A stretch of 64,000 nt of DNA. Origin: Patescibacteria group bacterium. GTDB taxonomy: Bacteria > Patescibacteriota > Patescibacteriia > JBDRGY01. The translations under genes and the position numbers were made by a program. The notes beneath the pieces are model-generated. The model had not been told where the DNA came from. It was given only the letters and a program-made list of their open reading frames with translations, and did not search any database. The DNA lies in NCBI GenBank assembly GCA_043817315.1, contig JBDRGY010000001.1, positions 9,732-73,731 of the forward strand, in the 5' to 3' direction. The stretch's first letter is position 1. The number at the start of each line of letters is the position of its first letter. Positions 4,098 to 64,000 of this stretch are shown here, piece after piece.

Positions 4098-6179
4098 ATG
4101 TCCAGAGAGTATCCTTTAGATAAAATTAGAAACATCGGGATTATCGCTCACATTGACGCTGGTAAGACCACAGTCACCGAGCGTATTTTATATTACACCG
4201 GAAAAAAACATAAAGTAGGGGAAGTTCATGAAGGCGAGGCGGAAATGGACTGGATGGAGCAGGAGAAAGAAAGAGGTATTACCATTACTTCAGCTGCCAC
4301 CACAGCTTTTTGGCCGTCTACCGGTGATACCCATCGCATCAATATTATAGACACCCCGGGACATATCGATTTCACGGTAGAAGTACAAAGGTCCCTGAGA
4401 GTTTTGGACGGCGGCGTGGTTGTTTTTGACGGTGTAGCCGGCGTGGAACCTCAATCAGAGACGGTTTGGCACCAGGCTGAAAAATTCGACGTTCCCTTAA
4501 TGGGTTTTATCAATAAGATGGACAGAACCGGAGCCGATTTTTACGCTGACCTCGATGACATCAGAGATAGATTGAACCCCAATGCTCACCCCATTCAGTT
4601 GCCAATCGGTGCAGAAGCAAATTTTCTGGGGATTATCGACTTACTTCGCCAAAAAGCTATTTTATACAAAGACGAAATGGGCAAGGAAATTGAAGAAACA
4701 GATATACCCGATGACATGAAGGAGAAGGTAGAGAAATTTCGCCACGATTTAATAGAGGCTGTAGCAGAACAAGACGATGATCTATTGCATAAATATTTAG
4801 AGGGCGAAGAGATAAAAATCGAGGAAATCCAACGGGTTCTCAGAAAAGCCACAATCGATAATAAGATTATCCCAATTCTCTGCGGTTCGGCATTGAAAAA
4901 CAAGGGTATCCAGTCCCTGCTGGATGCGATCAACCAATATTTACCCTCTCCTCTTGATATCCCTCCAGTTACAGGAAATGATCCCAAAACCGATGAAGAA
5001 AAAACACGTAAAGCTGATGATTCAGAACCTTTTTCCGCTTTGGCCTTTAAGATTGCTAGTGATCCTTTCGTAGGAAAACTGGCCTTTTTCCGAGTGTATT
5101 CTGGTGTTCTGGAGTCAGGTACTTATGTATTAAATTCAGTAAGTGGCAAGAAAGAAAGAATTTCTCGAATTGTCCGCCTACATGCCAACCATCGTGAAGA
5201 AGTCAAAGAAGTTTACGCCGGGGAGATAGCGGCTGCTGTTGGCCTTAAAGAAACAACTACCGGAGATACCTTATGTGACGAGGATAATCCTATTATTCTG
5301 GAGAAGATTACTTTCCCAGAACCAGTAATTTCTGTGGCTATCGAACCCAAGACTAAGGCAGACCAGGAAAAGCTGGGTATTGCTTTAAATAAACTGGCCG
5401 AGGAAGATCCCACTTTTAGAGTAAGGGGTGACGAAGAGACTGGTCAGACAATTATTTCTGGTATGGGAGAGCTGCATCTAGAAGTACTGGTAGAGAGAAT
5501 GAAACGGGAATTTAATGTAGAAGCCAATATCGGCAATCCGCAAGTCGCCTACAAAGAAACTATTAAGCAATTGGGGGAAGCCGAAGGAAAATATATCAAG
5601 CAATCCGGAGGCCGTGGCCAATACGGGCATTGCTGGGTACGTGTCGAGCCCAAAGAAAGAGGGGAAGGTTTTGAATTTGTTGACTCTATCAGGGGCGGAG
5701 TGATCCCCCAAGAATATATAACCCCGATTGGAAAGGGAATCAAAGAAGCTATGGACAACGGAGTAATGGCAGGCTACCCGGTGATCGATCTGAAAGCGAC
5801 AGTTTATGACGGTTCCTATCATGATGTTGATTCATCGGAAGTGGCCTTCAAGATTGCCGGCTCAATGGCTCTGCGGGCTGCTGTCAAAAAAGCCGACCCT
5901 GCCATTTTAGAACCAATCATGAAAATTGAAACAGTTACCCCGGAAGAATTTATGGGTGATGTCATAGGAGACCTCAATTCCAAGAGAGCCACCATTAAAG
6001 AAATGCGCGATCGAGGCAATGTAAAATTAATTGATGCCGATGTACCTTTATCAGAAATGTTTGGCTACGCCACTACCTTGAGGTCAATTACCCAAGGGCG
6101 GGGATCATATAACATGGAATTTGGCAGTTATCAAGAAGTGCCCAAGAATATCGCTGAGAAACTAATGGGAGAAGAATAG
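4098..6179 (+). CDS. fusA: elongation factor G
   Basis: AHIDAGKTT and DTPGHIDF GTPase motifs, 693 aa, in the str operon. Confidence 0.95.
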
Positions 6180-26606: not shown

Positions 26607-26876
26607 ATGTACTACACCTATGTATTGCTGAGCTTTAAAGACAAGAAATTCTATATTGGATATACAAATGATATTGTTAAAAGGGTCAGGAACCATAATA
26701 AGGGAAAAGTAACGTCGACGAAATACCGTCAGCCTTTAAAGCTAATATATTATGAGGCGTGTTTAAATAAAGATGATGCCATTACCAGAGAAAAATACCT
26801 GAAATCCGGAGTGGGAAAACGCTATATAAAGAATAGGCTAAAGAAGTTTCTCGACAAAAATTTGTTTCGGGGTTGA
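26607..26876 (+). CDS. small GIY-YIG nuclease-superfamily protein (YhbQ/UPF0213-like), copy 1
   Basis: YTYVLLSFKDKKFYIGYTNDIVKRVRNHNKG, 89 aa. Confidence 0.7.
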   Translation: MYYTYVLLSFKDKKFYIGYTNDIVKRVRNHNKGKVTSTKYRQPLKLIYYEACLNKDDAITREKYLKSGVGKRYIKNRLKKFLDKNLFRG

Positions 26877-30029: not shown

Positions 30030-30278
30030 ATGCCCTACGTTTACATATTAAAGAGCCAAAAAGATAGAAACTTATATGTCGGGGCTACTTCTGATGTTAG
30101 AAAACGTTTCGATGAACATAATAGGGGGAGAGTGAAATCAACTAGAAATCGAAGGCCACTTGTACTAGTATATAAAGAGGAATATCGAACATTATCAGAA
30201 GCCAGAAAGAGGGAGTGGTATTTAAAACATCATCCCACGGGACAGCAATTGAAAAAGAAATTAATCATGGGTCGTTAG
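30030..30278 (+). CDS. small GIY-YIG nuclease-superfamily protein, copy 2; stop codon lies inside the tRNA-Lys 5' end
   Basis: MPYVYILKSQKDRNLYVGATSDVRKRFDEHNRG. Ends ...IMGR* with TAG at 30276-30278. Confidence 0.7.
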   Translation: MPYVYILKSQKDRNLYVGATSDVRKRFDEHNRGRVKSTRNRRPLVLVYKEEYRTLSEARKREWYLKHHPTGQQLKKKLIMGR

Positions 30279-35919: not shown

Positions 35920-37197
35920 ATGCCGTATATTTTACTCAAAGACGTTAGCCAGAACACAGAAAAGGAGGTAATTATCAGAGGTTGGGCAAATAATGTCCGT
36001 TCTTCCGGCAAAATTTTGTTTATCCAGCTCCGCGATGGAACCGGGGAAGTACAAGCCATAATTAATCAAGCTGATGTTAAATCATCAGCTTTTGATTTGG
36101 CCAAGACGATCACTATTGAATCCTCACTGGAATTAACAGGTAAAATTAAGGAAGAACCACGTTCACCCTCTGGCTACGAAATGCTAGTTAGCGATTTAAA
36201 AATAATACAAGTGGCCGCAAAATACCCCATAGGCAAGAAAGAGCACGGTCCGGAATTTTTGATGGATAATCGTCATCTGTGGCTGCGTTCTCCCAAACAA
36301 GCGGCAATTTTAAAAATTCGTGATGAAGCAATTTTTGCCATGCGGGAGTTTTTTAGAAAAGAAGGGTTTACTTTGACCGATTCGCCGATCTTGACCGCTT
36401 CAGCCTGTGAGGGTGGTACTACCTTATTTAAGACGGATTATTTCGGTGAAGATGCCTTCCTGTCGCAATCAGGCCAGTTGTATTTGGAAGCCACGATATA
36501 TTCTCTGGGACGGGTTTATGATTTTGGCCCGACCTTCCGAGCCGAGAAATCAAAAACCAGAAGGCACCTGATTGAATTTTGGATGTTGGATGCCGAGGCG
36601 GCATTCGTAGAGTTTGAAGAAAATTTGGAAATCCAGGAACAGCTGGTTAGTTACGTTGTTAGACAGATATTGATTAACAGGGAAATGGAATTAGAAATTT
36701 TGGAACGGGATACCAAGTTACTTCAAAAAGTAAAGCCGCCTTTTCCACGCCTCAAGTACGACGATGCTGTGAAAAATTTAAAAATAAAATGGGGCGAAGA
36801 TCTGGGAGGAGATGAAGAAACAGAAATTTCTAAGCAGTATGATAAACCAGTTTTTATAACCCACTACCCTGCCAAAGCCAAAGCTTTTTATATGCAGCCT
36901 GATCCTGATGACGAAAAATACGTTTTGAATTCAGATTTAATTGCCCCCGAGGGTTACGGCGAAATTAGTGGCGGCTCTGAAAGGATTCATGATTACGACT
37001 TGCTCGTCAAGAAATTGAAAGAGTTCAAGTTATCAGCCAAAGAATATCAGTGGTATCTGGATTTGAGGAAGTACGGCTCCGTGCCTCATGCCGGCTTTGG
37101 TATCGGCCTGGAACGGACCGTAGCCTGGATTTGCGGCTTACATCACGTCAGAGAAACCATACCATTTGCCAGATTATTAAATAGACTGAGACCATGA
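35920..37197 (+). CDS. asnS: asparagine--tRNA ligase (class IIb)
   Basis: [21 protein letters not shown] (motif 2) and C-terminal [24 protein letters not shown], 425 aa. Promoter TTGACG-17-TATAAT upstream. Confidence 0.7.
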
Positions 37198-38737: not shown

Positions 38738-39111
38738 TGGTAGAAGGAGAAGAAAAAAAAAGCAGATTTAACATGTCCGCTGTCTGGTGGGGCCTGGTGG
38801 CCATAGTGATAGTGGGGGGATTGGGTACTTATGTTTGGCTCAATTCACTTCGCTACGAGGCCGAAGAAAGAGCTAATGCCAATATTAACATTACGGTCAA
38901 TATTAATAGTGAACTGGTATCAGATACTGACGGAGATGGTCTGATAGACGTTCGGGAAGAATTTTGGGGGACTGATCCCAGAAACCCGGATAGTGATGGC
39001 GACACTTATTCTGACGGTTTTGAGATCGCCAACGGCTATAACCCCAAGGGAGAAGGTAAATTAGAAATCTATAACATCAATAACATCAATGGAACGAACA
39101 CCAATAATTGA
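38737..39111 (+). CDS. hypothetical membrane-anchored protein with Asp-rich Ca-binding-like repeats (DTDGDGLIDV...DSDGDTYSDG)
   Basis: TM segment followed by DxDxDG motifs. Overlaps the aspS start by 23 nt. Confidence 0.4.
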   Translation: MVEGEEKKSRFNMSAVWWGLVAIVIVGGLGTYVWLNSLRYEAEERANANINITVNINSELVSDTDGDGLIDVREEFWGTDPRNPDSDGDTYSDGFEIANGYNPKGEGKLEIYNINNINGTNTNN

Positions 39112-40465
39112 GACAAGCCAACACAAAGAGAAAATAATCAAGCTTTTTGGCTGGGTCAATAATACCCGAAGAATGGGTAAAATTATTTTTGTTGACCTTA
39201 GAGACAAAAGTGGTTTAGTACAAGTAGTCTGCGGTCCGGAAATCAAAGGGGCTGATGAGCTGCGCTCGGAATTTGTAGTTGAAATAACCGGCAAAGTAGT
39301 GTCGCGATCTGAAAAAAATATCAATACGGATCTAGCCACTGGTCGGATTGAAGTGCAAGCCTCCGGTTTAGTGGTACTGGCCCAAGCCAAGACTCCGCCG
39401 TTTGAAATTGCCAAGGAAAGAACAGTAGAAGAAGAAACCAGACTGAAGTACCGCTACCTAGATTTGCGCTTACCGCGAATGAAGAGAAATTTGATTTTGC
39501 GGCATAAGGTCAATAAATTTTTCCGAACCTTTTTAGATGACAGAGGATTTACCGAAGTGGAAACTCCCATTCTATCCAATGCCACCCCAGAGGGAGCCAG
39601 GGACTACCTGGTACCTTCCCGGATTCAGAAAGGAAATTTCTACGCTTTACCCCAAGCACCGCAACAGTTTAAGCAATTGTTAATGGTGGCGGGCTTGGAA
39701 AAATATTATCAGATTGCCCGTTGTTTTCGTGATGAAGATACCCGGGGTGATCGCCAACCGGAATTTACCCAGCTGGATATAGAGCTGAGCTTTGTTACCA
39801 TGGATGACATTATGAAGCTGACCGAGAAGATGTTTATCGAGCTGGTCAAAGAGGTCTGTCCTGACAAGAAAATCACTTTAACTCCTTTTCCCAGATTATC
39901 TTACGCCGATTCCTTAGCCCAATACCAGACCGATAAGCCTGATCTGCGTAAAAACAAGAAGAACGCCAAAGAATTGGCTTTTTGCTGGGTGATTAACCCA
40001 CCACTATTCGAGTTTTCGGAAAATGAAAAAAAATTAATATCCACTCATCATCCATTTACTGCTCCCATAGAAGACCAGGCCAAGCATTTGGATAAAAAAC
40101 CGGAAAACGTCTTATCCCAGGCTTACGACATTGTCTTAAACGGCTACGAATTAGGGACCGGCAGTATCAGAATCCACGATTATAAACTGCAGGAAAAGAT
40201 TTTCAAGATACTGGGTTTGAAGGACAAGGAGATCAAGGCCAAGTTCGGCCACCTGCTGGAAGCGTTTAGTTACGGAGTGCCCCCGCACGGCGGCATCGCC
40301 CCGGGCATTGATCGTGTTATGATGATTTTAGCTGAGGAGCCCAATATCAGAGAAGTGATCGCTTTTCCCAAAACTTCTGATGCCAGGGATTTGATGATGG
40401 GAGCTCCGGCCGAAATTGACAAAAAACAACTAGGCGAATTAGGAATTGAGATAAAGAAAAAATAA
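39089..40465 (+). CDS. aspS: aspartate--tRNA ligase, bacterial-type motifs but lacking the GAD insertion domain (458 aa)
   Basis: FRDEDTRGDRQPEFTQLDIELSF, C-terminal GGIAPGIDRVMMIL, and N-terminal OB anticodon-binding domain. Confidence 0.8.
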   Translation: MERTPIIETSQHKEKIIKLFGWVNNTRRMGKIIFVDLRDKSGLVQVVCGPEIKGADELRSEFVVEITGKVVSRSEKNINTDLATGRIEVQASGLVVLAQAKTPPFEIAKERTVEEETRLKYRYLDLRLPRMKRNLILRHKVNKFFRTFLDDRGFTEVETPILSNATPEGARDYLVPSRIQKGNFYALPQAPQQFKQLLMVAGLEKYYQIARCFRDEDTRGDRQPEFTQLDIELSFVTMDDIMKLTEKMFIELVKEVCPDKKITLTPFPRLSYADSLAQYQTDKPDLRKNKKNAKELAFCWVINPPLFEFSENEKKLISTHHPFTAPIEDQAKHLDKKPENVLSQAYDIVLNGYELGTGSIRIHDYKLQEKIFKILGLKDKEIKAKFGHLLEAFSYGVPPHGGIAPGIDRVMMILAEEPNIREVIAFPKTSDARDLMMGAPAEIDKKQLGELGIEIKKK

Positions 40466-51698: not shown

Positions 51699-52013
51699 AT
51701 GAACAATAAATTAAAAATTCAATCTGATTGTCCCTTTTGCGGGTCAGAATACGATATGCAGTCTTTGCACGTTCTTGAAGAAAGAGGCAGCGGATTCTTA
51801 GCTCATCTCAAATGTATGAACTGTCACGGTGCCGTGGTTACCTTAGTTTCCATGAGTCCGCTGGGCGGTCTGCTGGTAACCGGAGTAGCTACTGACTTGC
51901 AGGAGAGCGAGGTTCTGGGATTTGAAAAAGGGGAAGAGGTTAGTTATGACGACGTAATAAATATTCACGGGCTTTTAGAAAATAACGGGGAGTTGTTTAT
52001 TGATGTGAATTAA
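51699..52013 (+). CDS. hypothetical Zn-ribbon protein (CPFCG...CMNCHG)
   Basis: ORF with probable ATG start MNNKLKIQSDCPFCG. The track ORF begins at a TTG at 51651. Confidence 0.4.
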   Translation: MNNKLKIQSDCPFCGSEYDMQSLHVLEERGSGFLAHLKCMNCHGAVVTLVSMSPLGGLLVTGVATDLQESEVLGFEKGEEVSYDDVINIHGLLENNGELFIDVN

Positions 52014-52300
52014 TGAAAGAAAAAACGTACTACGTTTACATGTTATCTAATAAAAGGAAGAATGTTCTTTACACGGGAATTACTGGAAATTTGGAAGGAA
52101 GAGTTAGAGAGCACAAGAATAAGTTAGTTATGGGGTTTACCAGTAAGTATAATGTTGATCTATTGGTGTATTACGAGGAATATAATGATGTTTATGATGC
52201 GATTGCAAGGGAAAAGCAGATAAAGGGATGGTTGCGTAGCAAAAAGGATCAATTGATTAATAAACTAAATCCTAAATGGAAAGATTTGAGCGAAGGATAA
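52013..52300 (+). CDS. small GIY-YIG nuclease-superfamily protein, copy 3
   Basis: TYYVYMLSNKRKNVLYTGITGNLEGRVREHKN. The ATG overlaps the upstream stop (TAATGA). Confidence 0.7.
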   Translation: MKEKTYYVYMLSNKRKNVLYTGITGNLEGRVREHKNKLVMGFTSKYNVDLLVYYEEYNDVYDAIAREKQIKGWLRSKKDQLINKLNPKWKDLSEG

Positions 52301-52413: not shown

Positions 52414-54396
<1,983 letters not shown>

Positions 54397-54724: not shown

Positions 54725-54973
54725 ATGAAAAAGTCAGAACGTTTCTTGGCTAAAGCCAAGCAGGAGGGCTATGATATTCCTCAAAAGTACCTGACCAAGT
54801 ATAAACTGCCCAAGTATCAGGATTTCATTATTTTGGGCAAATGTTGGCGAGCGCTCAAGAAAAAGAAGTTGTCTAAGGAGGATCGGCAGCAGGTGCGCTT
54901 TATTATGACTCAACTGCTAGCCAAATGGCGGCCGCCGTTGGAGAAAGAGATAGATAGGATTTTGAGAAAATAA
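54725..54973 (+). CDS. hypothetical small basic protein
   Basis: ORF only. Confidence 0.3.
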   Translation: MKKSERFLAKAKQEGYDIPQKYLTKYKLPKYQDFIILGKCWRALKKKKLSKEDRQQVRFIMTQLLAKWRPPLEKEIDRILRK

Positions 54974-55014
54974 GAGATTCGTAATTGGATATTCGTAATT
55001 CGGGGGATTTTTTT

Positions 55015-55057
55015 GTTGGAAAAAGAAGAACCCCTGCACCACGATGTGATGCAGGGG
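55015..55057 (-). terminator. island terminator T1 (minus strand): hairpin cccctgcatcacatcgtggtgcagggg + T-rich tail
   Basis: Plus-strand cccctgcaccacgatgtgatgcagggg at 55030-55056, preceded by aaaaagaagaa on the plus strand. Near-identical to T2. Confidence 0.6.
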
Positions 55058-55088
55058 GTGCCCGAGATGGGCAAGGTGCGGATAGGAG

Positions 55089-55340
55089 TTACATGATAGG
55101 TCCGGAGATTTCTCCCATTCTATGCATCTCCTTGATCAGCTTGAAGAGCAGGAGCAGAGTATGAGAGGTAGCTTGGTCTACCTCTTCAGGGCTGGGTTCG
55201 CTGCCCTTTTCTTGGTGCAGGTTCTGGCGGACAGCATCCTCGATCCCGATGCGAGCCAGGTCAGCCCTTTCTTCTTCGCTGAGATTGAGAGTAGGATCCT
55301 TCAGAATCCTACTCATCTTGGTCATCGGTTTGCTGGCCAT
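55089..55340 (-). CDS. island gene J, hypothetical (83 aa), GC-rich
   Basis: ORF on the minus strand, last gene before T1. Confidence 0.4.
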   Translation of the reverse strand: MASKPMTKMSRILKDPTLNLSEEERADLARIGIEDAVRQNLHQEKGSEPSPEEVDQATSHTLLLLFKLIKEMHRMGEISGPIM

Positions 55341-55412
55341 TATTGACTCCTCTTTTCTCCAGCCAAAGCTGGGAAACCGTTAGTGGCTACCTCCCAACGA
55401 AAATAGGCTGAC

Positions 55413-55643
55413 TCAATCAATTACCAGAGAACCCGGCAAGAAGATGCGCGAGTTCGGGTGGCCCTCGATCGTGCCGTCGGGTGTTATCTTAACAGTATTA
55501 GTGCCGTCCACAAATTGGCACCCGCCGCTGGCAAAGGCTACAACTATTTGCGGCTTCATCAGCCTGCAGCTTGTCATTACGTCATTGCCTATTCCCGATA
55601 TGCAGATTATATCTGCCTTGCTGATCGCCTCGGCCCAGTTCAT
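55413..55643 (-). CDS. island gene I, hypothetical (76 aa) with ITPDGTIEG motif; may be fused with gene H if a frameshift is present
   Basis: ORF. It is 16 nt downstream of H in a different frame. Confidence 0.4.
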   Translation of the reverse strand: MNWAEAISKADIICISGIGNDVMTSCRLMKPQIVVAFASGGCQFVDGTNTVKITPDGTIEGHPNSRIFLPGSLVID

Positions 55644-55659
55644 CTCATCTCCTGTGTGT

Positions 55660-55989
55660 TTACCATGTTTCGAAGCAGCGGTGAAACTGCACCCGTTCTT
55701 GCAGCTCGATCCAGGCTCGTATTGGTGCCCGGTCCACCTGAACCCAGACCTGGCTTTTTATGTACCAGGTATCCTCGTTAACATCGAATCTCCCGTCCTT
55801 TTCCCGGTAAAGACGGCCTTGGTAATCCATCAGGAAACGAACTGAACCATCTTGGTCATTGACCATGGTCAGGATAGCCCCCTCTTTGACCAATTCAACG
55901 GCCTCGGGTTTTCCTTCCCAGGTCCCGCCATTCTTTAAGTCGTTGATGCGAAAGGGCTGTTCCGTATTGGCCAGACTGGCGATACTCAT
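55660..55989 (-). CDS. island gene H, hypothetical (109 aa)
   Basis: ORF with RBS agaggagag. Minus-strand promoter TTGACT-17-TATGAT at 56035-56062. Confidence 0.45.
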   Translation of the reverse strand: MSIASLANTEQPFRINDLKNGGTWEGKPEAVELVKEGAILTMVNDQDGSVRFLMDYQGRLYREKDGRFDVNEDTWYIKSQVWVQVDRAPIRAWIELQERVQFHRCFETW

Positions 55990-56034
55990 GGTGGCTCTCC
56001 TCTAAGGTGATTGAATGAAACGAACGGTTATTTA

Positions 56035-56062
56035 TCATATTAGAAACCACTAATTCAGTCAA
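56035..56062 (-). promoter_or_regulatory. island promoter P_H (TTGACT-17-TATGAT, minus strand)
   Basis: Reverse complement reads gtttgactgaattagtggtttctaatatgat. Confidence 0.5.
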
Positions 56063-56097
56063 ACAAAAAATCCCTGCACCACGTAGGTGATGCAGGG
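56063..56097 (-). terminator. island terminator T2 (minus strand)
   Basis: Plus-strand ccctgcaccacgtaggtgatgcaggg, preceded by aaacaaaaaat. On the minus strand this is a hairpin followed by atttttgttt. Confidence 0.6.
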
Positions 56098-56124
56098 CAT
56101 AGAGTTAGCAAAGAACAGTTGAAG

Positions 56125-56418
56125 TCAACTTTGAGGTTGACCTCTTCTCTGGCGAATCTGCTGGCCGCCTTTGATGTCTTCCTGGATCTCCAATTGCTGG
56201 TTTCTGTCGTGGACGTTGATGCCGTTGTCGTCAATGGTCACCGTGCCTGGCCGGGTTCCATGGATGACCACAGCCAGTCCGTCCCGGTATTCCTTGCAGT
56301 CAGCAATCTGACCTTTGAGGATGATCTTGGGTGCAGAGGTTCCCTTATCACCGGTGACTGACTGGGTCTTATCTACCAGTCGGGCAGACTGACCGAGTAA
56401 AACCTGACGATCGATCAT
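56125..56418 (-). CDS. island gene G, hypothetical (97 aa)
   Basis: ORF, 13 nt downstream of gene F. Confidence 0.4.
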   Translation of the reverse strand: MIDRQVLLGQSARLVDKTQSVTGDKGTSAPKIILKGQIADCKEYRDGLAVVIHGTRPGTVTIDDNGINVHDRNQQLEIQEDIKGGQQIRQRRGQPQS

Positions 56419-56431
56419 TAGCGTGCTCCTT

Positions 56432-57070
56432 TCAGACCTGACAGGCTCGAGCCGGGGGATAGACCCAGCTGTTACCCTGAAACTGGGTGACCAAGGGCAC
56501 TTCTATCACGAAGCCCTCGTCCTCTTCACTATCGATAACCTGAGCGAAGCAATCATGAAAAGCCCCAGCGGTCGGCTTGATCGTTCCGTCAGTTCGGATC
56601 ATCACTATGTGTTCCGGACCCTCGGAATTATCTTCATGGACGGTGACCAGGGTAATAACCACGATGTCAGGATCGCGCTCCGAAATGATCGGCCCTTCGA
56701 CTCTGCCTTGACGGATGACCTTTCCTGAACTGGCCTTGACGATCTGCAGGCCGTGGCAATCACGCAGCACGCTTTGCAGGAATTCGACGGGCAGGTGACG
56801 CCTTTCGGTAATCGGTAACCAGGTGCCATCTTCACCGATACGACGCTCGATCCGTATCTCGGGGATAGCCGAGTAGAACCCATCTGGTGTCACGGTAATT
56901 ATTCGGGGTTCGATGTCGTTGGGTCCCATCATCTTGATGTCCACTGGTCCCTTGGTATCTGACTGAGGGGTTATTTCTTCAACGGATCCCTCAAAAAGGA
57001 CTGCCCCATCCCGGTCAATCCGTGGATCTACTGCCCTGACCTGATCGTAATCAGCTAGCAAAACAGCCAT
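56432..57070 (-). CDS. island gene F, hypothetical (212 aa) with repeated (I/V)TPDG / RTDGTIKP motifs
   Basis: ORF. Promoter P_F lies upstream. Confidence 0.45.
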   Translation of the reverse strand: MAVLLADYDQVRAVDPRIDRDGAVLFEGSVEEITPQSDTKGPVDIKMMGPNDIEPRIITVTPDGFYSAIPEIRIERRIGEDGTWLPITERRHLPVEFLQSVLRDCHGLQIVKASSGKVIRQGRVEGPIISERDPDIVVITLVTVHEDNSEGPEHIVMIRTDGTIKPTAGAFHDCFAQVIDSEEDEGFVIEVPLVTQFQGNSWVYPPARACQV

Positions 57071-57135
57071 TGACCGATTCTCCTTATGGACTGCTGGGCC
57101 GATAGTAACCCACTGGAATGAGAAAAACTGGCTCT

Positions 57136-57164
57136 ATCTTATTAAAAACTAGAAGTTTAGTCAA
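57136..57164 (-). promoter_or_regulatory. island promoter P_F (TTGACT-17-TAAGAT, minus strand)
   Basis: Reverse complement reads ttgactaaacttctagtttttaataagat. Confidence 0.5.
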
Positions 57165-57165
57165 G

Positions 57166-57191
57166 AAAAAAAGCCCTGCAATTTGCAGAGC
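57166..57191 (-). terminator. island terminator T3 (minus strand)
   Basis: Plus-strand aaaaaaa + gccctgcaatttgcagagc. Confidence 0.55.
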
Positions 57192-57210
57192 TTGGGGAAT
57201 GAGTCCTAGA

Positions 57211-57771
57211 TTAGTCCTCATCTCGATCAGTGTCGATGAAGAGAACCTGTTGCCACTCCAACCAGTCATCAGAGTCTGACTTCCGAAACTGTACTACAGC
57301 ATTACCAGGTTGGTTGGCCAAGGAACCGTCCACGGTTCTGACAAGCAGACGCCTATCATTACCGCCTAGGTTGAGAAAATCTCCAGTACGGTAATGATCA
57401 AGGTAGCCGAAAGAAAGCCCATGTGGGACCTGCTGGTCGGCATTCCAGATACGGATAGACCAGCCAACTTGTACTACTTCATTGTGGTGAGCTTCCCAGG
57501 GCCCGAACCGGATCAGACTGCTAAGTTCCTGCCATCTGTCTGGTAGGTATACAACAGAGATAACCACCGAGGGATGGCTAAGACACTTACCGTCCCGTCC
57601 CACTTCGTAGGTTTGTTCTCCGATATGTTCCAAATCGACAGTGAAAGCCAAGCCGGACTCAGTCGGCCTCACTTTGGTAATTTCGGCAATCGGAGCTTCT
57701 GATCCTGGGGTCAGGGTACAAACGATTTTAACCAGCTGTTCCGGCTTGATAAAATCATGAATGATCATCAT
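57211..57771 (-). CDS. island gene E, hypothetical (~186 aa from MMIIHDF...), paralog of gene A (shared W-x-RIW-N/D-A and DDWLEWQQV motifs)
   Basis: ORF in the track runs 57211..57801. RBS gggagga precedes the ATGATG at 57771. Confidence 0.45.
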   Translation of the reverse strand: MMIIHDFIKPEQLVKIVCTLTPGSEAPIAEITKVRPTESGLAFTVDLEHIGEQTYEVGRDGKCLSHPSVVISVVYLPDRWQELSSLIRFGPWEAHHNEVVQVGWSIRIWNADQQVPHGLSFGYLDHYRTGDFLNLGGNDRRLLVRTVDGSLANQPGNAVVQFRKSDSDDWLEWQQVLFIDTDRDED

Positions 57772-57815
57772 TCCTCCCGTTTGGCGGTTTCTTCCTTTCA
57801 ATGTGCAATTAAACT

Positions 57816-57844
57816 ATCTTAGGAAATTAAGCCAAATAAGTCAA
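57816..57844 (-). promoter_or_regulatory. island promoter P_E (TTGACT-17-TAAGAT, minus strand)
   Basis: Reverse complement reads ttgacttatttggcttaatttcctaagat. Confidence 0.5.
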
Positions 57845-57871
57845 GTAACACAGCACCAGGTTCGGTGCAGG

Positions 57872-57901
57872 ATAAAAAAACCCCGTCAAAAACGACAGGG
57901 T
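57872..57901 (-). terminator. island terminator T4 (minus strand)
   Basis: Plus-strand aaaaaaa + ccccgtcaaaaacgacaggg. Confidence 0.55.
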
Positions 57902-57914
57902 CTAAGGAACGAAG

Positions 57915-58574
57915 TTAAGAGGTTAGTTGCCTGCGGCGATACAGCACAGCGGCGCGTTCGTCCACTGGGACAAAACCCAGTTCCGGCACTTCTTTCTCCA
58001 CGATGAAGTGGTCGTAGAACTGTGGGGGATCAGCACTGATTTGATGTGAGCCAGAATCACGTCCCGCTGCCAGGCGCAGGAAAAATCCCCGATTATGATC
58101 TGGAGGCATCTGCCGGATGTTGCCGGTAAAGATGATGCCCTTTTTCTGGCCTATACGGCGACGTCGCTCCTCGGTGTTGACGATGCGGACCACATCAGCT
58201 ACTTGGAAACGGCCTACTTGATGAGGATCCAGCTGACCTTGCAGCAGCAGCCAGGCCAGATCCTGATTGGCCATCAGGAAAGTGAGGAAGAACCAAGTGT
58301 CCTCGATTCTGACCAGGATTTCGATGACACCTCGCTTGGGGTAGGAGAAGTTGGGTGTAATGGTCTCAGCGACCTTACCACCCAGGTTAACCGTCAGCTT
58401 CTTCAAGGCGTGGAAGGGTCTATCCAGACGAATCTCTGCCTCCCGATCAGTAAAGGGGAGTCTGCCCAGCTCAATAAGGAGTTCAGCGAATTGGCTGGGG
58501 CGGATCCTGACACTTCTTCCTTTACAGAGAAGTAGTTTCAGTAGATCCAGAGGATACCTCTGTCTCTTGATCAT
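57915..58574 (-). CDS. island gene D, hypothetical (219 aa)
   Basis: ORF, third gene of the B-C-D unit. Confidence 0.4.
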   Translation of the reverse strand: MIKRQRYPLDLLKLLLCKGRSVRIRPSQFAELLIELGRLPFTDREAEIRLDRPFHALKKLTVNLGGKVAETITPNFSYPKRGVIEILVRIEDTWFFLTFLMANQDLAWLLLQGQLDPHQVGRFQVADVVRIVNTEERRRRIGQKKGIIFTGNIRQMPPDHNRGFFLRLAAGRDSGSHQISADPPQFYDHFIVEKEVPELGFVPVDERAAVLYRRRQLTS

Positions 58575-58589
58575 CTCTGACTCCTCGTC

Positions 58590-58871
58590 TCAATCATCAA
58601 CCCCGAACCTAACTTGCTTGAGAGTGGCACCGTCTTGGACAAAGAGCCGGAACTCATCACCAGGAACCGGCACCTGGCCATCGAAGGAGCAATTGAACAT
58701 GCATTCGCTTCGGCCAGTGACCATCTCTATCTGGACACCAACTCCCAGGTCGGTCAGTCTGGCAAACCTTCCTTTCAGATGATATTCACCGGCCAGGATG
58801 CGTTCGCTGGGAGTCTTGGGATCAGCCACTACTATAGTGTCGCCCGGGGTTAATCTTTCCACGGTTTCCAT
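58590..58871 (-). CDS. island gene C, hypothetical (93 aa)
   Basis: ORF. Confidence 0.4.
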   Translation of the reverse strand: METVERLTPGDTIVVADPKTPSERILAGEYHLKGRFARLTDLGVGVQIEMVTGRSECMFNCSFDGQVPVPGDEFRLFVQDGATLKQVRFGVDD

Positions 58872-58883
58872 TCAGCCTCTCCT

Positions 58884-59432
58884 TTATCGGGACAGCTTGT
58901 CTAGAGTGATCCATTTGCTGGCACCGGCGACCCAGTAAAACATCATCTGATCCTGCTGGCCCTTGATGTTGCCCTCGAGGTCGATGGTGGCTTGACGGTC
59001 TGTCTTGTTCTTGTCGCGATAGGTGACAATCCAGCCTTCTGGTGGATGATTGACCCTAATCAGGTCATTGATGGTGCCTTCCAGCAGGATCTCGGGATTG
59101 CCGTCTGGATCTTGAGACGGATAACCAATACCGATATAATCTCCGTCTCTTAGCGCTGCCCGCATGACCATTTCCTTTCTCGGCTCGGTAACTTGCCTCC
59201 ATTTTTCTTCAATTGGCAGCCGGTACTCGATTTTTTCTTCCGGATAGTCCACTAAGACTCCGTCAGGCTGGACTAACAGCCAGTCGTAGTTGATGCCCTT
59301 GCCTGGTCTGATCAGCCAGATACAGAAGTTATCTCCAGCTGTCTTTAAAGACATTATCAAGCCCAGATATTCCTCGGTTCCGTCAGGGTGGATACGACGG
59401 ATCCGATCTCCTTCCTGCAGGTAGAAGGCCAT
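58884..59432 (-). CDS. island gene B, hypothetical (182 aa) with HPDG/QPDG motifs
   Basis: ORF with RBS aataggag. Confidence 0.45.
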   Translation of the reverse strand: MAFYLQEGDRIRRIHPDGTEEYLGLIMSLKTAGDNFCIWLIRPGKGINYDWLLVQPDGVLVDYPEEKIEYRLPIEEKWRQVTEPRKEMVMRAALRDGDYIGIGYPSQDPDGNPEILLEGTINDLIRVNHPPEGWIVTYRDKNKTDRQATIDLEGNIKGQQDQMMFYWVAGASKWITLDKLSR

Positions 59433-59477
59433 TAGTAGCTCCTATTTGATGTCGATTTCTAAGGTGCGAATTGGGTT

Positions 59478-59506
59478 ATCTTAGCCAATATAATATATAA
59501 AGTCAA
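59478..59506 (-). promoter_or_regulatory. island promoter P_B (TTGACT-17-TAAGAT, minus strand)
   Basis: Reverse complement reads ttgactttatatattatattggctaagat. Confidence 0.5.
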
Positions 59507-59507
59507 G

Positions 59508-59541
59508 AAATAAAAACCCCGCTAAGTCTAATTTAGCGGGG
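59508..59541 (-). terminator. island terminator T5 (minus strand)
   Basis: Plus-strand aaataaaaa + ccccgctaagtctaatttagcgggg. Confidence 0.6.
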
Positions 59542-59550
59542 GACTAATGA

Positions 59551-60195
59551 TCAAGCTGCTGCCTCCACTTTGCCACCAATTGGCCATTTGGCACGGGCTT
59601 CCTCGGGCGGTGTCGGTTGTAAGCAGTATGCTTCGAAGGTAACTAGCCCCAGTTTGTTGCCGAACCAGCGGTAGATTTGGTAGGTTCGTTTACCATCCCT
59701 GACTCTGGCATCAAACCTGGCAAAAACTGGTACGTCCCTGTAAGCAGCATTCCGCACCGTGATGATGACGCCATCGGGGGTTACCCGGGTACCCTGGACT
59801 TTGCCACTGACTAGTACACCTACCCGGCCGCCGCGTTGGCGATCCTTCCTGCGCAGAGATTCGGGTACGGGAGTATCTGATATTTGAATGATGGTTTCCC
59901 TGGGCATAGTTGAAAAGGGTAGGGTGTAGCCTGGACCCAGGGCACAGACATCGTACCAGTCCAGCCATTCCTCAGATCCAGGTTCCTGGAACTGGACAAA
60001 ACGGGTGCTCCTGGAATTAACCACTGAACCGTCACAGCAATTCATGTGGATGCTATATCCCTTTTTATCAGAATTCCACAGGATGGAACCGGTTCCAGAA
60101 TGTCCTTGGTACTCCCATTCTTTCACGCACTTGTCGGCGACAGCGTCCCAGATACGTAGATGCCAGCCTTTACCGACTTGCTTTCTCTCGGGCAT
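59551..60195 (-). CDS. island gene A, hypothetical (214 aa), paralog of gene E
   Basis: ORF. Motifs WHLRIWDAVA and SEEWLDWYDV match WSIRIWNADQ and SDDWLEWQQV of gene E. Confidence 0.45.
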   Translation of the reverse strand: MPERKQVGKGWHLRIWDAVADKCVKEWEYQGHSGTGSILWNSDKKGYSIHMNCCDGSVVNSRSTRFVQFQEPGSEEWLDWYDVCALGPGYTLPFSTMPRETIIQISDTPVPESLRRKDRQRGGRVGVLVSGKVQGTRVTPDGVIITVRNAAYRDVPVFARFDARVRDGKRTYQIYRWFGNKLGLVTFEAYCLQPTPPEEARAKWPIGGKVEAAA

Positions 60196-60337
60196 CAGTT
60201 ATCCCTTTCGGCGCTGGCGCCAGCCTTCGGGTCGTTTACTGCCTCGATTCCTTCTAGAGGTGATTCCTAGTGAACTGTGGGTCAGGGTTAACCAGTTACC
60301 GTTTCGCGAAAGAAATTTCAGACATAGGTAACCAGGA

Positions 60338-60514
60338 TCACTGAAGTTGTTGTTTGGATTTATCTGATACACTATCGCGTCTTCGTATCATCATGACGGA
60401 TACTTTCTCACCTTCGATTTGATAACCGCCGTAATGTCCATGAGCTACTGGTTCTCCGACATTACTATCAAGGACACGAAGACGGGTTACGCCCTTGACC
60501 ACTTGTTTTCCCAT
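60338..60514 (-). CDS. island gene L, small hypothetical (58 aa, below track cutoff): MGKQVVKGVTRLRVLDSNVGEPVAHGHYGGYQIEGEKVSVMMIRRRDSVSDKSKQQLQ
   Basis: Hand translation. RBS ggaggg precedes the ATG at 60514. Confidence 0.4.
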   Translation of the reverse strand: MGKQVVKGVTRLRVLDSNVGEPVAHGHYGGYQIEGEKVSVMMIRRRDSVSDKSKQQLQ

Positions 60515-60560
60515 TTGGCACCCTCCAGCTTAGGTACTTAAATAAAGAACGAATTTATAT

Positions 60561-60589
60561 ATCTTATTAAATAGGTTATACTTAGTCAA
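60561..60589 (-). promoter_or_regulatory. island promoter P_L (TTGACT-17-TAAGAT, minus strand)
   Basis: Reverse complement reads ttgactaagtataacctatttaataagat. Confidence 0.5.
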
Positions 60590-60596
60590 GTGGCAC

Positions 60597-60633
60597 AATA
60601 AAAATAGGCCCTGCCAGTTTAGCCTGACAGGGC
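60597..60633 (-). terminator. island terminator T6 (minus strand)
   Basis: Plus-strand aataaaaatag + gccctgccagtttagcctgacagggc. Confidence 0.6.
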
Positions 60634-60652
60634 AAAGAACAGATGGAGGTCC

Positions 60653-60937
60653 TTAGTCGATACAGCCGAGGGCGATGAGGGTCTGACGACTCAGGCGAAT
60701 ACAGCCGAGGTCAGGATCTTCACAGTGCATCTCCCTGGCACCGTTGGCCCAGAGAGTGGCATCATGCATCACTTCGATGGACTGTACGCGGCCATTCTCA
60801 GTGATTTTAAAGAAGGTGCGGCCGTCACGGGCCGATATGTCCGATAAAGTCATGGGAAAGGCCCGTGGTACAAATTCCTCGCGGGCAGTGTCGTAGAGCC
60901 GGAGCCTGGAGCCCGGTTTCAACCTGCCTGTGCACAT
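60653..60937 (-). CDS. island gene K, hypothetical (94 aa)
   Basis: ORF with an upstream divergent intergenic region. Confidence 0.4.
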   Translation of the reverse strand: MCTGRLKPGSRLRLYDTAREEFVPRAFPMTLSDISARDGRTFFKITENGRVQSIEVMHDATLWANGAREMHCEDPDLGCIRLSRQTLIALGCID

Positions 60938-61085
60938 GAGTTACCTCCGTGGGCGTTTTCAAGGAATTCCCCGAAAACAAGCCAAAAGTGCCCTTATTTA
61001 TCCACAACAATTATTAATGATATCAGAAATTGCTAATGTTAGCAATTATCATATCAAGTATGACAATTAGGAAAGGAAAAACTTT

Positions 61086-61388
61086 ATGAACGGACAAAAT
61101 CCCCAGCAGCAACAGCAAATCCAGATCAAAATCCCCGATGAGGTATTAAAGGGTTTTCACGCTAATATGATGGCTGTGGCCCACTCCAAAGAAGAATTTG
61201 TGTTGGATTATATCAACGTTTATCCGTGGCAGAAATCCGGTATTGTGGGCGCGCGAATAATTTTGACGCCGGGACATCTGAAACGAATCATCTCCGCCTT
61301 AGCCGAAAATCTGAAAAAGTACGAAAAACAATTTGGCAAGATTGAAGAAGCTAAAGCACCCTCTGAAGAGATTGGCTTCAAAACCTAG
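61086..61388 (+). CDS. hypothetical protein (100 aa, Gln-rich N-terminus)
   Basis: AT-rich ORF. Palindrome attgctaa-tg-ttagcaat in its upstream region (61039-61056). Confidence 0.4.
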   Translation: MNGQNPQQQQQIQIKIPDEVLKGFHANMMAVAHSKEEFVLDYINVYPWQKSGIVGARIILTPGHLKRIISALAENLKKYEKQFGKIEEAKAPSEEIGFKT

Positions 61389-62463: not shown

Positions 62464-62492
62464 TTGACAGTAGATCGTTTTTTTGATAAATT
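62464..62492 (+). promoter_or_regulatory. promoter TTGACA-17-TAAATT
   Basis: cttgacagtagatcgtttttttgataaatt. Confidence 0.5.
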
Positions 62493-62499
62493 AGGTAAT

Positions 62500-62896
62500 T
62501 GTCAGCTGCGGCGAAGTTCAAAAGAAAGGAGGGATATTCGCCTAGGTGGGGACTTAACAACATGAACCCTGCTTCCTATAGGGAGGTTGCGGATGCCAAG
62601 AAGGAGCCGTTTCAGCAGGTCTACCTCTGTGGCCACTCTGGATCCTTGCCAGCACTGCAAGGGAACTCGGGCCACATTCAAGATGGGCGGTAACGCGGAG
62701 CACAGAGCAACGATTCTTGATCCGGATAGCGGACAGGTATCACTGGTTAGGGCAGGCCAGAAACCAGCCAAGGCAGTTCTGGGAAGGGTGAGCCGCAAAG
62801 GCCCCCTAACCGCTACCTTGGCGAATGGAATGCCCTGGAGATCCACTACCCAAGTGAAACAAATCCTACTAGAAGTACCCAAGTAGGGCTGACATA
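62500..62896 (+). ncRNA. candidate structured RNA, ~400 nt, GC-rich, possibly RNase P RNA-like (unverified); alternatively encodes an atypical 99-aa Arg-rich ORF (62587..62886)
   Basis: Bounded by a promoter and a strong terminator. The 5' tgtcagc (62500-06) can pair with the 3' gctgaca (62888-94), P1-like. The transcript contains the P3-like hairpin ggcgaa...ttcgcc, UAUAGGGAGG, GGGCGGUAACGCGGAGCACAGAGCAACG and GGGAAGGGUGAG, which resemble conserved RNase P RNA segments. Confidence 0.35.
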
Positions 62897-62905
62897 GCAG
62901 TAATC

Positions 62906-62948
62906 GAGGTGGGACCGAGCCAGGCTCGACCCACCTCAAATTTTTTTA
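62906..62948 (+). terminator. intrinsic terminator
   Basis: gaggtgggaccgagcc-agg-ctcgacccacctc followed by aaattttttt. Confidence 0.6.
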
Positions 62949-62963
62949 AAACATTTCTTCAAT

Positions 62964-64000
62964 ATGGCCAAGGATTACTACAATTTATTAGGCATAAACA
63001 AATCAGCTTCCGTGGCGGAAGTTAAAAAGGCTTTTCGCAAACTGGCCCATAAATACCACCCTGATAAAGGAGGAGGGGACGAGGCTAAGTTTAAAGAGAT
63101 TAACGAGGCCTATCAGGTTTTAAGTAATAAAGAGAAGCGGGCCCAATACGATCAATTCGGTACTACCTTTGAGGATGCAGCCAAAGGGGGGGCTGGTGGT
63201 TTTAATTGGCAGGATTTTACAGGAGGACAAACTGGGGGGTTTTCTGGCTTTGGAGGGGCGGGGGGACAGTATGGCGGGCAAGGAGCTAATTTCGATTTTG
63301 AAGACTTGGGCGACCTGTTTGGTGACATGTTTGGTTTCGGAGGAGGACGTCGCCGCAAGAGAGGGGGAGGTGCTTCCGATATTGCAGCAGAGCTTACTGT
63401 TGATTTTAATGATGCGGCTTTTGGGGCTGATAAAGTTTTGGATTTATACAAGGATATTATTTGTCCCAAGTGCAAAGGTAACAAAGCAGAACCTGGTTCT
63501 AAGATAGAAGATTGCAAAACTTGTGAAGGTTCCGGTCAAGTGCAGCAGGTGCAGCAAACTTTCCTGGGTGCTTTCCGTACTGTGGCCGCTTGCCCAGAAT
63601 GTCGGGGTGAAGGAAAATCCTATTCCCAAAAATGCAAGAAGTGCCAGGGTATCGGAGTGATAAAAGACAATAAAAGGATTAAGGTTAAAATACCTGCCGG
63701 CATAGACAACGGCCAGACAATTAGACTGGCTGGTGAAGGAGAAGCCAGTTCCACCGGGCAATCCGGAGATTTATTTTTAAGAGTTAACGTTAAACCACAC
63801 CCATCGTTGAAGCGGGTCGGTTACAACATTCATACGGAAAAAGAGATTACTATCTCCCAGGCCGTTTTGGGCGCCAAGGTGCCCATTGAGACTGTAGACG
63901 GTGAAGTAACACTAAAAATCCCTGCAGCCACCCCGGCTGGCAAAGTATTCAAACTGTCCGGAAAAGGAGTTACCAAATTAGGGGGCAGAGGTAAAGGGGA
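62964..64000 (+). CDS. dnaJ: molecular chaperone DnaJ (3' partial, runs off window)
   Basis: J domain MAKDYYNLLGINKSAS...KYHPDKG, a Gly/Phe-rich region, and four CxxCxGxG zinc-finger repeats. Confidence 0.9.
   Translation, partial: MAKDYYNLLGINKSASVAEVKKAFRKLAHKYHPDKGGGDEAKFKEINEAYQVLSNKEKRAQYDQFGTTFEDAAKGGAGGFNWQDFTGGQTGGFSGFGGAGGQYGGQGANFDFEDLGDLFGDMFGFGGGRRRKRGGGASDIAAELTVDFNDAAFGADKVLDLYKDIICPKCKGNKAEPGSKIEDCKTCEGSGQVQQVQQTFLGAFRTVAACPECRGEGKSYSQKCKKCQGIGVIKDNKRIKVKIPAGIDNGQTIRLAGEGEASSTGQSGDLFLRVNVKPHPSLKRVGYNIHTEKEITISQAVLGAKVPIETVDGEVTLKIPAATPAGKVFKLSGKGVTKLGGRGKG

Follow-up and report, generated by a model that had tools for sequence, protein, structure and literature searches.

In a 64-kb stretch of DNA from a Patescibacteria metagenome-assembled genome (MAG), hereafter the window, the genes dnaK and dnaJ are separated by a GC-rich block of small minus-strand genes. 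We read this block as a chromosomal array of autonomous cassettes that occupies a hotspot bounded by dnaK on one side and by a DUF3467 gene and dnaJ on the other, within one small clade of Patescibacteria (probability about 0.6). Sequence comparisons indicate that the array has a fixed address and that its cassettes are duplicated, lost, replaced and recombined. In related genomes the array has retained its address, its orientation, its GC contrast and its junction modules, but most of the cargo differs. We regard this model of architecture and turnover as likely, and a conflict-related function of the array as a tentative, rather doubtful extension of it.

Between dnaK (52429-54396, plus strand) and dnaJ (plus strand, starting at 62964) lie, in this order, a gene for a 97-aa membrane protein, orf82, the array genes g12 to g01 (55089-60937), the DUF3467 gene, a gene for a 345-aa membrane protein and a 500-nt stretch (Table 1). 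The end of dnaK and the start of dnaJ agree with those in a preliminary description of this DNA, which had reported a compositionally distinct block of 12 minus-strand open reading frames (ORFs) at about 55.0-61.0 kb and had named GC and tetranucleotide profiles as a check. When run on the 64-kb window, both profiles set the block apart. In 1-kb windows, GC is 0.48-0.53 at 55-61 kb and 0.33-0.51 (mostly ~0.42) elsewhere, and the only other values near 0.5, at 28.4-31.5 kb, cover the ordinary housekeeping genes for DnaB and OMP decarboxylase. The tetranucleotide distance to the rest of the window peaks in the block (4.6-4.7, compared with 1.3-3.4). GC at third codon positions is 0.58 in the array genes and 0.43 ± 0.056 in the host genes, and the balance of basic residues is reversed, with 8.0% Arg and 4.4% Lys in the array against 4.1% Arg and 9.3% Lys in host proteins. 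Relative codon usage of array and host genes correlates with r = 0.68, whereas two halves of the host genes correlate with r = 0.98. The 12 ORFs tile the block on the minus strand, each preceded by an AGGAG/GGAGG-like Shine-Dalgarno site. Nearly all other genes of the window are on the plus strand, where GC skew is positive; if the plus strand is the leading strand, the array would be oriented head-on to replication.

Predicted expression signals divide the array into six units: g01, g02-g03, g04-g05-g06, g07, g08-g09 and g10-g11-g12. We counted 23 promoter-like sites between 54.3 and 63.0 kb (10.2 ± 3.2 in shuffled sequence), together with 20 terminator-like sites (9.6 ± 3.3 in shuffles). The exact string TTGACT-N17-TA(A/T)GAT occurs five times in the window, where 0.02 occurrences are expected, and always on the minus strand of the array, ahead of g02, g04, g07, g08 and g10; the best host promoters outside the array read TTGACA. 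Six hairpins followed by U-runs are predicted to act as terminators, with folding energies of -13.9 to -22.4 kcal/mol (z from -3.0 to -7.0). The junction hairpins are perfect stem-loops of 23-27 nt, with stems of 9-12 bp, followed by a T-run and then directly by a promoter; each terminator lies 6-33 nt ahead of the next -35 hexamer. Strong coding-strand terminators are rare beyond the array (~4 in 55 kb). These signals, far beyond chance, yield the same six units that the preliminary description had drawn (K, L-A, B-C-D, E, F-G and H-I-J), and its statement that every unit ends in a terminator just before the next promoter was borne out. It had also given every unit a canonical promoter, a word that here stands for 9-10 of 12 consensus positions; five of the promoters are of the uniform type, whereas that of unit 1 is weaker and deviates from this type, and its counterparts in three related loci (L083, L085 and L086) read TTGACT-17-TAA(G/A)AT. 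The outermost signals mark the limits of the array, the unit 6 terminator (55031..55057) being its left compositional edge and the unit 1 promoter (61017..61045) its right edge.

One hairpin, CCTGCAYCA...TGRTGCAGG, is found twice in the window, after g12 (55033-55055) and after g09 (56073-56096), and twice in the related locus L086 (7448-7471 and 8070-8092), where it follows unrelated genes; it is absent from 85 other fetched loci. A 17-nt motif with a CTGTTCTTTGC core also stands ahead of the hairpins after g09 and g01. Two further candidates for array elements were dropped: a 5'-untranslated-region box, AATTCGTTCWTTT, downstream of several -10 hexamers is not enriched (87 matches, 77 ± 9 expected), and a 10-nt tandem repeat at 54977-55000 is not conserved in L086.

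The same locus was compared in relatives obtained by a DnaK scan of 185,579 species genomes, a profile scan of Joint Genome Institute (JGI) metagenomes and a search for homologues of the 345-aa membrane protein; scanning genome contigs with this membrane protein gave nothing, and no contig turned up when g03, the DUF3467 protein and orf82 were looked up by exact sequence. That dnaK and dnaJ usually lie close together, as had been supposed, is seen in five more distant Patescibacteria (L007, L062, L005, L064 and L006), where the two genes are nearly adjacent and the gap of less than ~1.2 kb in some cases contains nothing but the DUF3467 gene or a small gene of the GIY-YIG type. In a sister lineage (L001 and L002, DnaK 76-77% identical), the DUF3467 gene lies 7.8-7.9 kb away from dnaK and the genes in between are unrelated to those of the window: L001 encodes a 394-aa TIR_2-domain protein, in whose place L002 has membrane proteins, and both intervals contain an HD-domain protein (confirmed as Pfam HD_4 only in L001) and families of minus-strand paralogues of 66-79 aa. 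Looking for the block in relatives, as the preliminary description had proposed, we found arrays in L086 (European Nucleotide Archive (ENA) ERZ27252253, DnaK ~91% identical) and L085 (JGI Ga0180007). Window, L085 and L086 are roughly equidistant, with identities of 74-79% for DnaJ, 58-60% for the membrane protein and 83-91% for the DUF3467 protein. Both additional arrays begin directly upstream of the DUF3467 gene and divergent from it, are richer in GC than their flanks (0.49-0.55 against 0.40 in L085; 0.49-0.62 against 0.36-0.45 in L086), and consist of TTGAC(T/A)-N17-TAA(G/A/C)AT promoters placed after hairpin-plus-T-run terminators. The cargo of L085 comprises a first gene resembling g01 (33% identical), an extra 93-aa cassette and homologues of g02 and g03. 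L086 has seven or more units with ~13 small genes that lack Pfam families, of which only a few can be linked, weakly, to genes of the window; its array is bordered by a PIN-like DUF3368 gene.

These comparisons bear on the idea, implied in the preliminary description, of a singular foreign insertion: a single recent horizontal import from a GC-richer donor, such as a decayed prophage, phage early genes or morons, kept by chance. Foreign composition and codon usage, a strand opposite to that of almost all other window genes, and small relative-less genes with their own promoter and terminator, which is how morons are defined (PMC3594210), all suit such an import. However, an array with the same GC contrast occupies the same site in three genomes whose DnaJ proteins are only 74-79% identical, and the divergence of the L085 homologue of g03 (65% identity over 125 aa) is similar to that of the flanking genes. 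No match was found in PHROGs (all array proteins but g11 and g12 scanned), and 2.9 million viral contigs contained no relatives of the four single array proteins or the g03/g07 alignment with which they were searched. There is also no integrase in the dnaK-dnaJ interval or in the L086 neighbourhood, no direct repeat at the array boundaries and no tRNA gene at the array, the only ones in the window lying at 30.3 and 47.5 kb. An import of this kind is thus improbable. Since address and GC contrast are shared and g03 has diverged like its flanks, we reject a recent one-off import and conclude that the locus is old and maintained, with cassettes turning over.

Turnover is also visible at the level of strains. 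Two loci from one sample (L081 and L082; ENA ERZ24794679 / ERR13325278) are ~99% identical to the window from g01 to position ~59702 inside g03. From there, identity of L081 to the window drops abruptly to ~68%, a level that holds over the rest of g03, the terminator behind it and the promoter that follows, and similarity stops entirely just past the TTGACT hexamer of the unit 3 promoter. A recombination breakpoint therefore lies in g03 at ~59700 (codon ~165-170), where the synonymous divergence (dS) jumps from 0.05 to 3.7; the ratio of nonsynonymous to synonymous divergence (dN/dS) is 0.30 in codons 1-170 and 0.07 in the diverged tail. Farther downstream, L081 carries a different cassette, with another TTGACT-N17-TAAGAT promoter, a gene for a 204-aa protein distantly related to g06 and a new small ORF. 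In the same sample, the flank with the membrane-protein gene and dnaJ matches the window at 97.9% identity (dS ≤ 0.03), and the sequence just upstream of the DUF3467 gene is also different and bears a promoter of the uniform type.

The recurrence of one hairpin after unrelated cargo in two genomes, and junctions that are conserved while cargo differs, would be expected of a system resembling integrons or the recombinase-associated arrays termed rAID, in which a site-specific recombinase encoded elsewhere captures cassettes at hairpins that double as terminators. Co-directional genes, skewed GC and repetitive intergenic modules, as in rAID-1 (10.1101/471110), point the same way. We nevertheless hold such a system to be very improbable: no tyrosine or serine recombinase was found in the dnaK-dnaJ interval, among the mid-sized window proteins tested or within 10 kb in L086; the hairpins, with stems that are short (9-12 bp) and perfect and with T-runs behind them, have the form of intrinsic terminators and not of attC sites; each unit has its own promoter, unlike integron cassettes; and the sole mapped breakpoint falls within a gene.

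To judge from their Shine-Dalgarno sites, signs of purifying selection and the conservation of g03 in L085, the array ORFs are real genes. Compared with the strain variants L081 and L084, g01, g02 and codons 1-170 of g03 carry few changes, with dN/dS from 0 to 0.30 (0.25-0.30 for g02 and g03), and the pooled substitutions of g01-g03, which all come from one variant allele, show a synonymous excess (9/17, 23% expected; binomial p = 0.007). An artefact, whether an assembly chimera, contamination or chance ORFs in GC-rich non-coding DNA, might be suspected because the genome is a MAG, the proteins lack homologues, and GC-rich DNA has fewer stop codons and so more easily contains long ORFs. But L084, which comes from a different sample (ENA ERZ24794676), matches the window from 61184 to 60140 without gaps at 99.1% identity, spanning the interior of the DUF3467 gene, the right boundary, g01, g02 and the start of g03. 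The 61-kb junction, at which the preliminary description had considered a chimera, is thus reproduced, and in L086 and L085 an equivalent array is enclosed by the same flanks on both sides. Single-strand tiling and Shine-Dalgarno sites on 12/12 ORFs, detectable purifying selection and conservation of g03 across species also argue against an artefact, which we consider extremely improbable.

The array proteins have no recognizable family. At cut-offs of E ≤ 1 or 0.1, none of the 12 matched Pfam, and none of those scanned against NCBIfam (all but g02 and g12) did so; these family-library scans revealed neither an enzymatic domain (nuclease, ATPase, NTPase or other) in any of the 12 proteins nor the homology to housekeeping families that had been named as speaking against an unusual block. 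PDB sequences gave no match for g05, g06, g08 or a profile built on the domain that g03 and g07 have in common, and a word-index search with g03 found only g03 itself. Eight array proteins (g01, g03, g05, g06, g08, g09, g10 and, of g07, the N-terminal part) were joined into one query and searched with HMMER against 1.84 billion representative proteins, a library with one representative per 50%-identity cluster, in which closer relatives are hidden within clusters; the eight matches were all the query proteins themselves, from the NCBI MAG 'Patescibacteria group bacterium' (locus tags ABIB97_00475-00525). The highest Kyte-Doolittle mean over 19 residues is 1.38 in the array, below the threshold of 1.6 and compared with 2.33 in the neighbouring membrane protein. 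With no hydrophobic stretch at the membrane threshold, the cargo is therefore predicted to be soluble and to lack Sec-type signal peptides. The dipeptide DG is enriched 2.6-fold and PDG ~20-fold over host proteins, and the motif L-x-[PEV]-G-[DSHE]-x-[IVL]-R occurs near the N-terminus in ~6/30 cassette proteins, which together suggest hairpin-rich, possibly SH3-like small barrels. An AlphaFold2 (AF2) prediction for g03 from a 3-row alignment is all-beta, with a predicted local distance difference test (pLDDT) score of 46, too low for use. We infer that the cargo consists of fast-evolving soluble proteins with small domains that are probably rich in beta-hairpins.

A novel anti-phage defence island, made up of enzymatic systems not yet catalogued, would account for the strong variation of content among strains, for the TIR- and HD-domain proteins at the same hotspot in L001 and for the PIN-like gene at the edge of the L086 array. 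It is an unlikely account, given that no array protein matched PADLOC at E ≤ 1 (10 scanned, all but g09 and g10), that the 12 proteins contain no enzymatic domain, and that monocistronic units of 94-186 aa with beta-rich, binder-like sequences are atypical of known defence systems.

Several cargo genes are related to one another. We retained only pairwise relations that passed shuffle tests, and set aside a jackhmmer clustering of the array proteins, which had drawn in antisense decoy ORFs. The N-termini of g08 and g04 are paralogous (BLASTP E = 2e-5, z = 8.2-8.8), the C-terminus of g04 is related to g09 (Smith-Waterman z = 5.2-5.4), and the C-terminal 80 aa of g07, for which the start listed in Table 1 is the most likely one, are paralogous to the N-terminal domain of g03 (BLASTP E = 3e-9, z = 15.7). 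Across genomes, g06 resembles the 204-aa protein of L081 (z = 5.7-6.0), with the common motif W[FW]xL[TP]FLMxNQxLA, and g08 resembles a 120-aa protein of L086 (8414-8776; z = 7.5). The N-terminus of g01, LKPGSRLRL, recurs as LKPGHRVRL in the first cassette of L085 (z = 4.2). A remnant of g11 lies at 4870-4730 of L086 (53% identity over 47 aa), and g12 is weakly similar to two 113-aa L086 genes (z = 4.1 each), sharing the motif EP[ST]x[ED]EVx[QE]A as seen by eye. The gene g02 is represented by a 58-aa ORF (60338-60514) and an out-of-frame continuation (60199-60372), which fills an apparent 140-nt gap between g02 and g03. The frameshift is due to one extra G in GAT-AGT-G-TAT, and the match to L085 changes frame at ~codon 47. 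In L085, an intact homologue of 112 aa (5070-5408) stops 3 nt before the start of g03 and aligns with the reconstructed g02 protein with z = 30.5. The frameshift is also present in L081 and L084, so that three assemblies of the population share it, and g02 is either a fixed pseudogene or a +1 frameshift site.

Table 1 Features of the dnaK-dnaJ interval of the window, with corresponding features of related loci.
Feature	Position	Strand	Remarks
Membrane protein, 97 aa	54428..54721	+	between dnaK and orf82
orf82, 82 aa, basic, all-helical	54725..54973	+	host-like GC; convergent with g12
Predicted terminator, unit 6	55031..55057	-	CCCCTGCATCAC-ATC-GTGGTGCAGGGG + T-run; -22.4 kcal/mol, z = -7.0
g12, 83 aa	55089..55340	-	looks helical by eye
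g11, 76 aa	55413..55643	-	ORF with Shine-Dalgarno site
g10, 109 aa	55660..55989	-	no relative detected
Predicted promoter, unit 6	56034..56062	-	TTGACT-17-TATGAT
Predicted terminator, unit 5	56072..56097	-	CCCTGCATCAC...GTGGTGCAGGG; hairpin family of the unit 6 terminator; -20.3 kcal/mol
g09, 97 aa	56125..56418	-	related to C-terminal part of g04
g08, 212 aa	56432..57070	-	N-terminal 100 aa paralogous to g04 N-terminus
Predicted promoter, unit 5	57136..57164	-	TTGACT-17-TAAGAT
Predicted terminator, unit 4	57171..57193	-	-13.9 kcal/mol
g07, 186 aa	57211..57771	-	most likely start at 57771, as in NCBI protein P0005
Predicted promoter, unit 4	57816..57844	-	TTGACT-17-TAAGAT
Predicted terminator, unit 3	57878..57903	-	-15.6 kcal/mol
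g06, 219 aa	57915..58574	-	distant relative of the L081 204-aa gene that follows g03
g05, 93 aa	58590..58871	-	ORF with Shine-Dalgarno site
g04, 182 aa	58884..59432	-	g08-like N-terminus and g09-like C-terminus
Predicted promoter, unit 3	59478..59506	-	TTGACT-17-TAAGAT; similarity to strain variant L081 stops here
Predicted terminator, unit 2	59517..59541	-	-15.5 kcal/mol
g03, 214 aa	59551..60195	-	best conserved cargo gene
g02	60199..60514	-	ancestral gene of ~104-112 aa, split by a 1-nt insertion near 60375
Predicted promoter, unit 2	60561..60589	-	TTGACT-17-TAAGAT
Predicted terminator, unit 1	60608..60633	-	-20.3 kcal/mol
g01, 94 aa	60653..60937	-	exact protein also in ENA assembly ERZ24794676
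Predicted promoter, unit 1	61017..61045	-	TTGCTA-17-TATCAT with upstream TG; weaker; divergent from DUF3467 gene
DUF3467 gene	61086..61388	+	Pfam E = 2e-21
Membrane protein, 345 aa	61425..62462	+	followed by the 500-nt stretch up to dnaJ
Extra GC-rich cassette	62464..62943	+	upstream of dnaJ
orf82 copies in L086	3647-3895, 4545-4874, 5656-5910	+	interleaved with GC-rich minus-strand cassettes
dnaK-DUF3467 interval, sister lineage	L001 11966-19720; L002 11984-19833		

Two elements outside the twelve genes appear to belong with the array. The gene orf82 is single-copy in the window and has three copies in L086 (70-81% amino-acid identity), one of them fused to the antisense g11 remnant. Because these copies are interleaved with cassettes, orf82 is taken to travel with the array. 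Its AF2 model has five helices (pLDDT 73) and no significant fold match among PDB or viral structures, and searches of Pfam, PDB, phage records and viral contigs gave no relative of orf82. The sequence between the 345-aa membrane-protein gene and dnaJ contains a promoter-like site (TTGACA-17-TAAATT with TG, 62464-62492), an ORF of ~97 aa (~62593-62886; GC 0.56, GC3 0.58) with a GGGAGG site upstream, and a strong 14-bp hairpin (62900-62943). This stretch has the appearance of one more cassette, the thirteenth, on the opposite strand, and is weakly similar to a 94-aa gene at the same place in L086 (11170-11454; tblastn E = 0.002 in a tiny search space). Rfam searches of the array and the dnaJ leader at relaxed thresholds gave chance-level matches only.

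Elsewhere in the window, three small paralogues encode GIY-YIG nucleases (52013-52300, 26610-26807 and 30036-30215, plus strand). One of them immediately precedes dnaK, a position conserved in L086, and its homologue in L005 sits between dnaK and dnaJ; another lies just before tRNA-Lys. Two paralogous class-II aminoacyl-tRNA synthetase genes, each with tRNA-synt_2 and OB anticodon-binding domains, are located 2 kb apart (35920-37197 and 39089-40465, plus strand).

In the mechanism that we propose for the cassette array, homologous or illegitimate recombination, acting between repeated terminator-promoter junctions and via the conserved flanks and probably preceded by DNA uptake, would add, remove, duplicate and swap cassettes. 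With start and stop signals of its own, each unit could be shuffled without polar effects on its neighbours or on dnaK and dnaJ, which lie on the other strand, much as phage morons can. High turnover, purifying selection on retained genes, clade restriction and the TIR gene at the L001 hotspot are the reasons for suggesting, tentatively, a role in conflict; candidate roles would be the neutralization of phage proteins or of toxins from neighbouring bacteria by immunity-like binders, or manipulation of the host cell of what is likely an episymbiont. Several points weigh against the array reading. The promoters and terminators are predictions from consensus matching and folding; the cargo links between genomes beyond g02, g03 and orf82 are weak (z = 4-7.5); no recombinase or dedicated machinery was found, and turnover by general recombination is assumed; the only strain-level breakpoint seen lies within g03 and not at a junction; and neither homology nor structure, with the g03 model at pLDDT 46, backs a function of the cargo. 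The model also does not explain why the GC excess persists across species-level divergence; it might be due to exchange with a gene pool richer in GC, to GC-biased gene conversion where recombination is frequent, or to constraints at the amino-acid level. A bolder version of the array reading would be an undescribed cassette system of Patescibacteria, in which the junction modules, including the CCTGCAYCA...TGRTGCAGG hairpin, serve both as expression signals and as substrates for capture and shuffling, orf82 or an unlinked recombinase might assist, and the cargo forms a private, quickly diversifying repertoire of small beta-rich binders, encoded by GC-rich genes, that an episymbiont of reduced genome would direct against phages, the toxins of neighbours or its host cell. 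We think this unlikely.

With their tiny genomes, Patescibacteria are believed to live in attachment to other cells. To our knowledge, their accessory genes are largely uncharacterized, as are the ways in which these bacteria acquire DNA and turn it over, and we found no directly relevant literature on such arrays in Patescibacteria or the candidate phyla radiation (CPR). The locus provides a concrete case for comparison, with a fixed address, a grammar of terminator, promoter and cargo, at least three clade-restricted protein families and strain-level turnover. Its interest lies in a form that is conserved without conservation of content, and in proteins without relatives outside the clade. 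If the junction modules drive exchange, it would be a cassette system without an integrase, and if the proteins are immunity or anti-phage binders, it would be a new reservoir of such factors. It also illustrates that neither contamination nor recent import has to be the explanation when a MAG contains a GC-rich block of genes with no known relatives, and its sustained GC excess raises the question of how this is maintained, by gene-pool exchange or by GC-biased conversion.

Horizontal gene transfer hotspots flanked by core genes occur in bacterial chromosomes, and the locus resembles them in that dnaK and DUF3467/dnaJ bracket arrays, unrelated genes or next to nothing, depending on lineage, with no integrase present. 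It differs from them in its regular cassette grammar and in a base composition of its own that is sustained within one clade. Classical integrase/tRNA islands and prophages are a poorer match, as no integrase, tRNA target or boundary repeats were found here. Integrons share short cassettes in the same orientation, hairpin-forming junctions and variable cargo; however, the array has no intI gene and no attI/attC architecture, and its cassettes bring their own promoters and terminators, so that on every defining feature tested it is not an integron. Among described systems, rAID-1 of Bacteroidales, an array of orphan immunity genes (10.1101/471110), comes closest as a co-directional array in which GC is skewed and the intergenic sequences are repetitive. 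Our 12 co-directional genes resemble it in GC skew, repeated modules, strain variation and a plausible role in conflict. In contrast to rAID-1, no XerD-like recombinase was found at the array head (window interval, L085 and L086), no cargo matched NCBIfam or Pfam, which includes immunity families, GC is skewed upward and not downward, and the junction repeats consist of terminator plus promoter. Phage morons are independent transcription units added to phage genomes (PMC3594210). Like them, the units described here have their own predicted promoter and terminator and a GC content unlike that of their neighbours, could be added or removed without disturbing flanking operons, and carry small cargo, mostly of unknown function. 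Unlike morons, they lie outside any phage or prophage, between dnaK and DUF3467/dnaJ, as six tandem units with one promoter type, a recurring hairpin and a chromosomal address that is fixed across species. On present evidence, the locus is thus a variant of known accessory-gene organization, a moron-like cassette array in a hotspot flanked by core genes, rather than a categorically new system.

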